In this document: positions 33,790 through 35,488 of the stretch, piece by piece
Layout: every line of letters begins with the position of its first letter
Numbering within the stretch: the first letter of the stretch is position 1
Translations under genes and position numbers: made by a program
Source: a bacterium
GTDB lineage: Bacteria > JAAXHH01
Length of the DNA stretch: 64,000 bases
Direction of reading: 5' to 3'
Assembly: GCA_965248395.1 (NCBI GenBank)
Contig: OZ252103.1
Location: 2,602,882 to 2,666,881 of the forward strand
Notes under the pieces: generated by a model
Database searches by the model: none
What the model was told of the DNA's origin: nothing
Seen by the model: only the letters and a program-made list of their open reading frames with translations

Positions 33790-34065
33790 ATGGCCCGCAT
33801 GGTCCACTGCGTCAAGCTCAACGAGGAACTCGAAGGACTCGACTTCGTTCCATTCCCCAACGAGCTCGGCCAGCGCATCTACGATAGCATATCCAAACAG
33901 GCATGGCAAATGTGGATCAACTATTCGGTCATGGTCATCAACGAATACCGGCTGAATCTCGCCACGGCCGAAGGGCAGGAGGTCTACGACCGGAACCTGG
34001 AAGAGTTCTTCTTTGGCGAAGGCGGCGAAATGCCGCCTGGATACCGGCCCCCTCAATCGAAATAA
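33790..34065 (+). CDS. yggX: YggX-like Fe(2+)-trafficking / oxidative-damage protection protein
   Basis: 91 aa; MARMVHCVKLNEELEGLDFVPFPNELGQRIYDSISKQAWQMWINYSVMVINEYRLNL aligns well with E. coli YggX ([57 protein letters not shown]). ACGAGGAGG precedes the ATG. Confidence 0.85.
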   Translation: MARMVHCVKLNEELEGLDFVPFPNELGQRIYDSISKQAWQMWINYSVMVINEYRLNLATAEGQEVYDRNLEEFFFGEGGEMPPGYRPPQSK

Positions 34066-34099
34066 CCCCGGTCGCTCTAACCGCCGTGGGGTTTCCAAG

Positions 34100-35488
34100 A
34101 TGAAACGTGACGATGGTATCCTGCTCATTTCCTGCTATGAACTGGGTCATCAGCCCTTCAGTCTGGCTTCCCCAGCCGCCCGCCTGAAGTCCGAAGGATA
34201 TGACGTCTCCGTAGTCGACGCCGCGATAGAGCCTGTCCCCGAGGATATTGTCCGCGGGGCTGGTTTCATCGGTATTTCCGTGCCCATGCACACGGCCATG
34301 CGGGTCGGGATGGACCTGTCTCGCCGCATCCGGAAACTCAATCCCGGTACACACCTGTGTTACTACGGGTTGTACGCCACCCTGAACGCCGACTACCTCC
34401 TGACCCACGGGGCCGACTCGGTGATAGGCGGAGAGTTTGAACAACCACTCTGCGACCTGGTCGACCGGTTGTGCGCGGGGAGTATCTCCACGCTCGACGG
34501 CGAATCACGTACCACCCTGAATCTGTCCCGCCAGGTCTGGACGACCCCGGACCGCGACGCTTTACCCGGTCTGAAACGTTACGCCCAGCTGGATACCGGG
34601 GTGGAATTGCTTCCCGCCGGTCACACCGAGACCACGCGGGGATGCCTGCATACCTGCCTGCACTGCCCGATCACGCCGGTGTACCGCGGTCGGTTTTACG
34701 CCATACCCGCCGACGTGGTCCTCGCCGACGTGGACCAGCAGGTGCGTATGGGGGCGCGCCATATCACCTTCGGCGATCCGGACTTTCTAAACGGTCCTAC
34801 CCACGTTCTGCGCATTCTGCGCAAAATGAGAGACGCCCACCCCGGACTCAGCTTCGATTTCACTACCAAGATTGAACACATACTCGAGCACGCGTCCTTT
34901 TTCTCTGAAGCCAGGGCGTTGGGCGGGATCTTCGTCGTCTCGGCCGTCGAATCAGTGAGCGACCTGGTGCTGAGGCGCCTGAAAAAAGGACACACCCGCG
35001 ACGATATCGTCCGGGCCCTCGGCATACTGCGGGACGCGGATATTCCCATGCGGCCCTCGCTGGTGGCGTTCACACCCTGGACGACGCTGGACGACTACCT
35101 GGATCTATTGGATTTCGTCGAAGTCCACGACCTGGTCGATCATATCGACCCGGTGCAGTATACCATCCGCCTGCTCGTACCGCCCGGTTCTGCCCTGCTG
35201 GACGAGTCGGAAACACGGTCTTGGATCGGACCGCTCGATGAGGCCGCGTTCACCTACGAGTGGCGCCACGCGGACGCTCGCATAGACCGCCTGCACCGGC
35301 AGGTTTCCCGTCTCGTGGAGGAAGCAGACGCATCGGGAGAGGAAAGAGACAACCGGTACCTGTTTTATCGAATCAGGTGCCTGGCTGCGGAAACTGCGGG
35401 TTACGAGAAACCGGAAGAACGCCCATTCAACGACTTACCGCTCAAAAGGCGACGCGTCCCCAGGCTGACCGAAGCCTGGTTCTGCTGA
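34100..35488 (+). CDS. B12-binding domain radical SAM protein
   Basis: N-terminal B12-binding-like Rossmann segment (ILLISCYELGHQPFSLASPAARLKSEGYDVSVVDAAIE); CxxxCxxC radical-SAM motif RGCLHTCLHCP; ~460 aa. Confidence 0.75.
   Translation: MKRDDGILLISCYELGHQPFSLASPAARLKSEGYDVSVVDAAIEPVPEDIVRGAGFIGISVPMHTAMRVGMDLSRRIRKLNPGTHLCYYGLYATLNADYLLTHGADSVIGGEFEQPLCDLVDRLCAGSISTLDGESRTTLNLSRQVWTTPDRDALPGLKRYAQLDTGVELLPAGHTETTRGCLHTCLHCPITPVYRGRFYAIPADVVLADVDQQVRMGARHITFGDPDFLNGPTHVLRILRKMRDAHPGLSFDFTTKIEHILEHASFFSEARALGGIFVVSAVESVSDLVLRRLKKGHTRDDIVRALGILRDADIPMRPSLVAFTPWTTLDDYLDLLDFVEVHDLVDHIDPVQYTIRLLVPPGSALLDESETRSWIGPLDEAAFTYEWRHADARIDRLHRQVSRLVEEADASGEERDNRYLFYRIRCLAAETAGYEKPEERPFNDLPLKRRRVPRLTEAWFC

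Follow-up and report, generated by a model that had tools for sequence, protein, structure and literature searches.

A radical SAM selenoprotein gene downstream of yggX and the recurrent iron-sulfur helpers of its family

The question raised by this bacterial locus is why yggX, the gene for a small iron protein, stands directly upstream of a gene for a radical S-adenosylmethionine (SAM) enzyme, and what that enzyme may do. The pair lies in a 64-kb stretch of contig OZ252103.1 (the window, the whole stretch of DNA that was analyzed), and in the window SPECIFICALLY just these two genes belong together; they share a strand and probably form an operon. The molecular role of YggX has stayed vague since 2001, and its part in iron trafficking has long been debated. 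Our analysis indicates that the downstream gene encodes a selenoprotein of the CUAEP/CCAEP-tail radical SAM family, and that genes of this family are recurrently accompanied by iron or iron-sulfur (Fe-S) helper genes. Taken jointly, family membership, selenocysteine (Sec) decoding and a functional link to the Fe-S helpers are very likely. A fuller account, in which yggX and the selenoprotein gene form an operon, YggX serves the Fe-S cluster of the enzyme, and the enzyme carries out 3-amino-3-carboxypropyl (ACP) radical chemistry on its C-terminal tail, is one that we favor with moderate confidence.

A sequence-only reading of the locus had placed yggX at 33790-34065, and this is borne out by full-length matches of the product to Pfam PF04362 Iron_traffic (E 1e-35, 121.8 bits, cut-off 27) and to the NCBIfam equivalog NF003817, 'oxidative damage protection protein' (123.4 bits, cut-off 74), as well as by solved YggX structures that align over the entire protein (E 1e-17 to 2.5e-30; best 2MZY, E 2.5e-30). 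A GAGGAGG ribosome-binding site lies 5' of the ATG. Cys7 is present and is invariant among YggX proteins both linked and unlinked to the radical SAM gene. The YggX of E. coli and Salmonella belongs to the same family and shares its length, Cys7 and the NEYRL motif, but there the partner of yggX is mutY (the mutY-yggX operon), whereas here it is a radical SAM selenoprotein gene. The radical SAM-linked YggX of Chloroflexota (L045 and L063, for example; L numbers denote loci) forms a subtype with NHYGL at positions 52-54 instead of NEYRL, which the window protein, unlike that subtype, retains. The same reading put the radical SAM gene just downstream of yggX, which holds, with a gap of 35 bp, which is one too many: its ATG at 34100 comes 34 nucleotides (nt) later. 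This ATG, and not TTG 34013, is the start, since the match to the family profile sets in at residue 7 when translation begins there.

The same reading also described the second gene as a B12-binding radical SAM gene with a CxxxCxxC motif. Both domain and motif are found: the match to the B12-binding-like domain PF02310 is weak (35.5 bits, cut-off 32.1), the radical SAM core PF04055 scores 52.8 bits, and the CxxxCxxC motif, here CLHTCLHC, is invariant in 82 of 82 family members. The label itself may mislead, as the nearest characterized relative, ArsL, was reconstituted without added cobalamin (bioRxiv 10.1101/2024.02.01.577332). The truncated protein matches NF040546, 'CUAEP/CCAEP-tail radical SAM (seleno)protein', at 658.3 bits (profile positions 1-457 of 468, cut-off 500); when the reading frame is continued through the TGA and the U is written as C, the score rises by 19 bits to 677.4 and the match extends to positions 1-465 of 468. 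With a score above the cut-off, a C-(U/C)-A-E-P end and a CxxxCxxC core that follows a B12-binding-like domain, the window protein is a full-length, typical member of this family, which is named but has no characterized function. It falls outside any characterized housekeeping subgroup, and all class B NCBIfam models score below 40 bits. The family was listed as uncharacterized by Haft and Gwadz (bioRxiv 10.1101/2022.07.06.499078), and no characterization of it was found in the literature searched.

The gene does not end at 35488, as had been proposed; the apparent stop is a TGA that encodes Sec, and the true end is at 35527. Past the TGA at 35486-35488 the frame reads ...TEAWFC-U-AEPTASRKGSFI as far as a TAA at 35525-35527, which gives the C-U-A-E-P tail of the family. 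A scan for relatives, with one genome per species, found at least 559, of which the best 80 loci were examined. The tail is visible in 79 of these, of which 61 have TGA after WFC and 18 have TGC or TGT; in all 79 AEP follows in frame, so that the Cys forms read CCAEP. In close relatives the frame and the stop position beyond the TGA are kept with mostly synonymous changes, and L012 and L013 carry some replacements. In 117 of the 120 best database homologues the gene call stops at ...WFC, as the RefSeq coding sequence of Thermomicrobium roseum (WP_012643191.1; L087 7953-9389) does at the TGA; since the family is cut at the Sec codon, the Cys-Sec tail is missing from most databases.

A hairpin that starts 12-13 nt 3' of the UGA provides the second line of evidence. 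When 56 distinct TGA sequences are aligned without gaps, 90% of cells pair and five of the seven base pairs show compensatory changes, compared with 21-50% pairing in controls in which the partner was slid by 1-3 columns. Of the inner stem pairs, 94% form in TGA loci, versus 39% in Cys loci. The post-Sec peptide varies by clade (TASRKGSFI in the window clade, T.DQFGPL in most others), yet the stem is kept; the loop is GGAAA in the window clade and AGUUN in most members, and its second position is an invariant G. Bacterial selenocysteine insertion sequence (SECIS) elements lie about 11-13 nt past the UGA and carry a G in the apical loop, a pattern that the hairpin fits. Given its compensatory changes and its retention in TGA loci alone, we read the hairpin as a bacterial SECIS, and the comparative evidence indicates that the TGA is decoded as Sec463 with its help. 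An Rfam scan of the whole 64-kb window gave no match at gathering thresholds for any family, and a promoter and terminator scan of 33400-35800 gave nothing above shuffle expectation. A gene at 21441-22523 on the minus strand encodes a 360-residue pyridoxal phosphate (PLP) enzyme with weak matches to Aminotran_5, Cys_Met_Meta_PP and SelA, and is not a bona fide selenocysteine synthase.

The pairing of yggX with the radical SAM gene is conserved well beyond close relatives. A tblastn search places yggX immediately upstream of the radical SAM gene, on its strand, in 34 of the best 80 loci, from several phyla, with gaps of 9-349 nt; the spacer among all relatives ranges from a 4-nt overlap up to 349 nt. 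The YggX-linked loci include the window clade, made up of metagenome-assembled genomes (MAGs) labeled Latescibacterota or Gemmatimonadota with 78-94% radical SAM identity; L011 and L013, at about 60%; and many Chloroflexota (Ktedonobacteria, Chloroflexia, Anaerolineales), with about 50% radical SAM and 38-58% YggX identity. Looking up the loci of other proteins added a deltaproteobacterial MAG, L083, with a 4-nt gap between the genes, and further Chloroflexota loci (L090-L093) in which they overlap by 4 nt. A neighbor-joining tree of the radical SAM proteins groups the YggX-linked loci in one large clade, within which Thermomicrobia have secondarily lost the link, and leaves L083 apart on a deep branch. 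A Formyl_trans_N gene (Fmt-like, about 315 residues) stands divergent from the yggX-radical SAM pair in at least 17 Chloroflexota loci; its distance upstream of the radical SAM gene is about 400-900 nt in L018, L031, L040, L045, L050, L056 and others, and L090-L093 have it as well.

Where yggX is missing, other Fe-S helpers often take its place. Neighboring open reading frames (ORFs) were clustered and then annotated, and genes on the same strand within 1 kb of the radical SAM gene were counted in 81 loci: YggX occurs in 35, an Nfu-domain protein in 18, an A-type carrier in two, a SufT-like protein in two and DUF169 in eight. At least one Fe or Fe-S helper is thus found in 53 of the 81 loci, or in 60 when DUF169 is counted, and YggX and Nfu never occur in one locus. 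Among Acidobacteriota, Ignavibacteriales and Rokubacteria an Nfu-type gene directly follows the radical SAM gene; a Poribacteria MAG has an NfuA-type fusion directly upstream of it, and L057 has a SufT-like gene upstream. Of the candidate operons seen, the most complete is that of an Ignavibacteriales MAG (L037, 4101-12243), which runs sufS ... SufT-like, A-type carrier, radical SAM, Nfu, zinc-dependent alcohol dehydrogenase, L-amino-acid ligase and 2-hydroxyacid dehydrogenase. DUF169 follows the radical SAM gene directly in Planctomycetota, Nitrospirota and Vicinamibacterales (L022, L026, L032, L055, L067, L070, L071 and L077). It is also found beside hgcA-like, MerR and YHS genes in Nitrospina (preprint 10.1101/648329), an association too weak to be used here.

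In E. coli, NfuA donates clusters to radical SAM enzymes, LipA and MiaB among them. The place that yggX occupies in the window is taken by an Nfu or NfuA-type gene in 18 related loci, but the E. coli protein is a general carrier not encoded beside its clients, whereas the helper genes of the CUAEP family are probable operon partners. Since non-homologous proteins of one functional class share one position, the enzyme probably makes special demands on Fe or Fe-S supply or repair, for which the comparative evidence is good. The sequence-only reading had proposed iron support dedicated to this enzyme. The conserved pairing and the substitute helpers speak for such support; exclusive dedication does not stand, as some close relatives of this YggX lack any radical SAM neighbor. 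No paper tying YggX to a radical SAM enzyme, and no mention of an association of the CUAEP family with YggX, Nfu or the ligase, was found in the literature searched. In three Blastocatellia loci a gene for an HhH-GPD base-excision glycosylase lies upstream of the ligase-radical SAM-Nfu genes (L014 7995-8693, L023 6820-7509, L024 3292-3951); it recalls the mutY-yggX operon of E. coli, possibly by coincidence.

Two alternative explanations bear on these conclusions. If the TGA at 35486-35488 were a true stop, the protein would end at ...WFC and the hairpin would be a transcription terminator; the gene callers' choice in 117 of 120 homologues, the UUUAUCU that follows the hairpin and the lack of visible Sec machinery in the 64-kb window would agree with this. 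However, a Cys codon occupies the same position in 18 loci, where the frame goes on as CCAEP; the in-frame AEP(T) and the downstream stop position are conserved; the hairpin decays exactly where TGA became Cys; the family hidden Markov model gains its 19 bits on read-through; and the terminator scan did not call the hairpin. The true-stop explanation is thus largely refuted, and we give it next to no weight. The adjacency of yggX and the radical SAM gene might, on the other hand, be inherited synteny without functional coupling, with YggX acting as a general oxidative-stress protein. Most YggX-linked loci fall in one large radical SAM clade, so that the pair arose independently only a few times, and close YggX homologues (70-74% identity) stand alone elsewhere. 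Against this, the pair is kept across phyla although the radical SAM protein diverges to about 50% and YggX to 38-58% identity, the 4-nt overlaps suggest translational coupling, the separate deep branch L083 also has the pair, and non-homologous Fe-S helpers replace YggX in other clades. We therefore regard mere synteny as very improbable.

What the enzyme does is best approached through ArsL, its closest characterized relative (37% identity over 417 residues to the Alicyclobacillus protein) and, to our knowledge, the sole radical SAM enzyme with a CxxxCxxC motif that is known to form an ACP radical. ArsL cleaves SAM to methylthioadenosine (MTA) and this radical, and not to a 5'-deoxyadenosyl radical, in spite of its CxxxCxxC motif; it binds arsenite on the cysteines of a C-terminal RCCLKC motif and forms the C-As bond of hydroxyarsinothricin (bioRxiv 10.1101/2024.02.01.577332; 10.64898/2026.04.29.721666). 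Removal of the tail abolishes the product and leaves SAM cleavage intact (same two preprints), and the tail was shown to bind no cluster (bioRxiv 10.1101/2024.02.01.577332). Among curated families, the CUAEP family appears by sequence comparison to be the closest relative of ArsL. Both have the same arrangement of two domains, an RGCxHxCx(H/Y)C cluster motif, a flexible C-terminal tail rich in Cys, and a nearby ATP-grasp gene. The ArsL model NF040542 (RCCLKC-tail radical SAM), however, scores only 316 bits on the window protein (cut-off 450) and its match stops at residue 408. The CUAEP family has about 50 extra residues ending in Cys-Sec and no RCCLKC; in alignment with two ArsL sequences the arsenite-binding motif is absent from the window protein, whose tail is WFCUAEP. 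Where the CUAEP family has H17, MHT63-65 and C87, ArsL has F, LFD and T/F. No ars genes, ArsM and ArsQ included, occur within about 5 kb in the window or among the conserved neighbor clusters of the 80 loci, whereas ArsL loci do have such genes. PDB sequence and fold searches returned no ArsL-like structure, and found generic class B radical SAM enzymes, AprD4 and MiaB instead.

H17, M63-H64-T65, C87 and H188 do not vary within the CUAEP family, and ArsL lacks them. Of these, H17 belongs to the beta1-alpha1 loop, M63-H64-T65 come after beta3, C87 is in beta4 and H188 falls within the cluster motif; the only conserved cysteines are C87, the CxxxCxxC triad and C462, next to U463. Together with the tail, the four invariant sites may bind a second cofactor or metal: cobalamin, a mononuclear metal or an auxiliary cluster. 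In true B12 domains the beta1-alpha1 loop has DxHxxG; here that motif is not intact and H17 alone is conserved. The AlphaFold model of a Cys-form homologue, P0109 (confidence score pLDDT 91.6), shows a two-domain class B fold with a low-confidence tail (residues 460-484), and its fold neighbors are TsrM, AprD4, OxsB, MgmA, CysS, TokK and MiaB.

Other genes also recur next to the family. An ATP-grasp L-amino-acid ligase (ATP-grasp_4 + LAL_C2) is found near the radical SAM gene in 23 of the best 80 loci (about 29%), in varying order and orientation, in Acidobacteriota, Rokubacteria, Nitrospirota and Chloroflexota, and also beside L083. A major facilitator superfamily (MFS) or Atg22-like transporter often accompanies it, and L070 is a tight operon of radical SAM, Nfu, DUF169 and ligase genes. 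The CUAEP gene of T. roseum is flanked by a PLP aminotransferase and an MFS transporter, with a GNAT gene two genes further. The two ArsL clusters examined, on Alicyclobacillus and Bacillus cereus plasmids, also contain an ATP-grasp gene, 26% identical to the CUAEP-linked ligase and located beside MFS, ArsM and GNAT resistance genes. Since the ligase and transporter context parallels that of the ArsL clusters, an amino-acid product, and hence ACP transfer, is the most economical reading. On the Alicyclobacillus plasmid pAACI01 and the B. cereus plasmids (L088 1112-2662, L089 1136-2664) the ATP-grasp gene forms a pair with an AhpD-like gene of the carboxymuconolactone decarboxylase family adjacent to ArsL; the arsinothricin paper, searched for the term, makes no mention of an ATP-grasp gene (PMC8552651). 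EgtB-like, FGE-sulfatase and PLP-decarboxylase genes occur at least 3 kb from the radical SAM gene, inconsistently placed, in some Planctomycetota and Acidobacteriota loci.

These comparisons suggest the following mechanism. A [4Fe-4S] cluster on CLHTCLHC would reductively cleave SAM and, by homology to ArsL at 37% identity, the cut may fall at the C-gamma-S bond and release an ACP radical. A thiophilic or selenophilic substrate bound to the flexible Cys-Sec tail could then trap the radical, and this would yield a gamma-substituted amino acid of the 2-aminobutyrate type; in other genomes this product might be passed to the adjacent L-amino-acid ligase and MFS exporter. YggX would keep an oxygen- or turnover-labile cluster loaded by donating Fe(II) and converting [3Fe-4S] to [4Fe-4S]. 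We put forward the ACP radical and the tail-bound substrate only tentatively. A functional analogy may be drawn with diphthamide synthesis, in which an ACP-radical Fe-S enzyme, Dph1-Dph2, is likewise coupled to a small iron protein, Dph3. Dph3 donates one Fe to Dph1-Dph2, which turns [3Fe-4S] into [4Fe-4S] and allows activity in air (PMC8251694). There is no relation in sequence or fold, however: Dph2 is not a PF04055 protein, and Dph3 is a rubredoxin-like zinc ribbon and not a YggX. Adjacent Cys-Sec near a flexible terminus also occurs in thioredoxin reductase (GCUG tail) and in MerB-like, HgcA and MerT CU selenoproteins, but these families are unrelated to ours, and any role of CU here is putative. 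CU motifs are rare and tend toward heavy-metal or organometallic contexts (Haft and Gwadz, bioRxiv 10.1101/2022.07.06.499078).

Several observations weigh against the account as a whole. The CUAEP tail shares no homology with RCCLKC, comes about 50 residues later and has two soft ligands where RCCLKC has three; it has low confidence in the AlphaFold model, so its reach to the active site is putative; and no ars or other metalloid genes occur among the conserved neighbors. The invariant H17, M63-H64-T65 and C87 may signify a second cofactor or a different chemistry, and for a family that has been listed as uncharacterized (Haft and Gwadz, bioRxiv 10.1101/2022.07.06.499078) the chemistry is putative. 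Within the 64-kb window there is no ligase, exporter, Nfu gene or Sec machinery, and ARAGORN found no tRNA or tRNA-Sec there. In addition, no helper gene is present in 21 of the 81 loci, and YggX relatives with 70-74% identity, as well as a myxobacterial one, occur without the radical SAM gene.

With respect to the chemistry, a serious rival is canonical class B catalysis, in which a 5'-deoxyadenosyl radical, possibly with cobalamin on the N-domain, methylates or rearranges a small molecule, and the Cys-Sec tail is a redox arm or hydrogen-atom donor and not a substrate site. Thioredoxin reductase has a GCUG tail and ribonucleotide reductase a C-terminal Cys pair as redox arm, and a Cys-Sec at a flexible C-terminus is the thioredoxin reductase arrangement; the PF02310 match, the cobalamin radical SAM enzymes among the fold neighbors (TsrM, OxsB, TokK, CysS, MgmA) and the invariant H17, which stands where B12 domains have DxHxxG and ArsL has Phe, likewise speak for it. 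But DxHxxG is not intact, and AprD4, another top fold match, has the same B12-like domain without cobalamin. The ATP-grasp partners near the CUAEP gene, and the more distant one in ArsL clusters, suggest similar amino-acid products, and ArsL, the nearest characterized homologue, makes its ACP radical without added cobalamin (bioRxiv 10.1101/2024.02.01.577332). On balance we consider class B chemistry unlikely. A further alternative is that the enzyme uses up its Fe-S cluster, or a second Fe site, or has it as substrate, with S or Se inserted from a sacrificial cluster or from a persulfide or perselenide on the tail (compare LipA, BioB and MiaB), and that the helpers rebuild it. The flavodoxin-like N-domain of MiaB binds an auxiliary cluster, and NfuA rebuilds the LipA cluster after turnover; MiaB is among the fold neighbors, and its cluster sits at positions topologically like H17, H64 and C87. 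Helpers of four unrelated Fe-S families flank the gene, which in L037 follows directly on sufS, SufT-like and A-type carrier genes. There is, however, no conserved three-Cys motif for an auxiliary cluster, and the tail of ArsL was shown not to bind one (bioRxiv 10.1101/2024.02.01.577332), which leaves a sacrificial cluster improbable.

ACP transfer to a tail-bound substrate, the reading we prefer, may be taken further. The CUAEP family could be a second kind of ACP-radical transferase that links carbon, through a carbon-heteroatom bond, to a soft element on the Cys-Sec tail, with Se, S, Sb, As species or a metal as candidates; its gamma-substituted amino acid would be turned by the ligase into a peptide antimetabolite or cofactor, and a labile or consumed cluster, or a second Fe site at H17/H64/C87, would have recruited the YggX, Nfu, A-type and SufT donors. 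This extension is speculative, and we hold it to be doubtful in its full form.

The remaining genes around the pair do not belong with it (Table 1). The sequence-only reading had named ankyrin genes and unannotated tandem paralogs as the neighbors, which is correct. The two paralogs match no family in Pfam, NCBIfam or PDB sequences, and they adjoin the radical SAM gene only in the window clade (L001-L010, L012), as do the ankyrin, VOC, membrane and SPFH/NfeD genes. A functional link of the radical SAM gene to the paralogs, which are convergent with it, was rejected on these grounds, and so was one to the ankyrin genes. A role as maturase of a RiPP (a peptide made by the ribosome and modified after translation), of the SPASM/twitch type, was also rejected: there is no auxiliary-cluster Cys motif, TIGR03975 scores only 18.9 bits, and there is no room for a precursor gene. 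As had been noted from the sequence, no obvious precursor ORF lies nearby; the flanking intergenic spaces of 189 nt and 20 nt hold no credible small gene, conserved ORFs of less than 70 residues not having been searched for systematically. The neighbors of the family's radical SAM genes vary among phyla. The density of ankyrin-repeat genes in the window is unusually high, and several MAGs of the closest loci have isolate names resembling sponge or coral sources, which together suggests a host-associated lifestyle.

Table 1. Positions of the genes and sequence features in the window (aa, amino acids)
Feature	Position	Strand	Description or basis
yggX	33790..34065	+	91-aa Fe(II)-trafficking / oxidative-damage-protection protein, canonical type (Cys7, NEYRL)
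yggX-radical SAM intergenic spacer	34066..34099	+	34 nt; read from sequence
CUAEP-tail radical SAM selenoprotein gene	34100..35527	+	475 aa including Sec463; corrected end; NF040546, read-through translation
N-terminal Rossmann / B12-binding-like domain, residues 9-120	34124..34459	+	PF02310, 35.5 bits
Invariant residues H17, M63-H64-T65, C87, H188	34148-34150, 34286-34294, 34358-34360, 34661-34663	+	Family conservation, ArsL alignment
CLHTCLHC, CxxxCxxC motif, residues 182-189	34643..34666	+	C182, C186, C189, predicted ligands of SAM-cleaving [4Fe-4S] cluster
Cys462-Sec463 (TGC TGA), family CU motif	35483..35488	+	Homologous codon TGA or Cys in relatives
Post-Sec tail AEPTASRKGSFI and stop TAA (35525-35527)	35489..35527	+	Read-through frame
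Predicted SECIS hairpin	35501..35519	+	7-bp stem 35501-35507 with 35513-35519, loop GGAAA 35508-35512; fold and covariation
Tandem paralogs, 393 and 397 aa	35548-36729, 36734-37927	-	48% identical to each other; convergent with radical SAM gene
Ankyrin-repeat genes	28212-29435, 29454-31211, 32296-33600		Pfam-confirmed
Ankyrin-repeat genes	6097-8728, 10708-12417, 13129-13923, 24676-27169		By eye

The window gene itself is an ordinary member of a family found in several hundred species, most of them uncultured bacteria of soil, groundwater and the sea; cultured carriers include Thermomicrobium roseum DSM 5159, Ktedonosporobacter rubrisoli SCAWS-G2, Thermogemmatispora aurantia A1-2 and Thermalbibacter longus. 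What may be new here is the family-wide association with Fe-S helpers and with an amino-acid ligase, of which no mention was found in the literature searched; the recurrent L-amino-acid ligase and MFS partners suggest an undiscovered natural product of the amino-acid type. An oxygen-sensitive Fe-S operon partner, accompanied elsewhere by Nfu, A-type or SufT helpers, would be a concrete client for Fe(II) donation or cluster repair by YggX. If the enzyme is indeed an ACP transferase that recruits Fe donors, the 'iron trafficking' role of YggX would become testable on a defined client enzyme.

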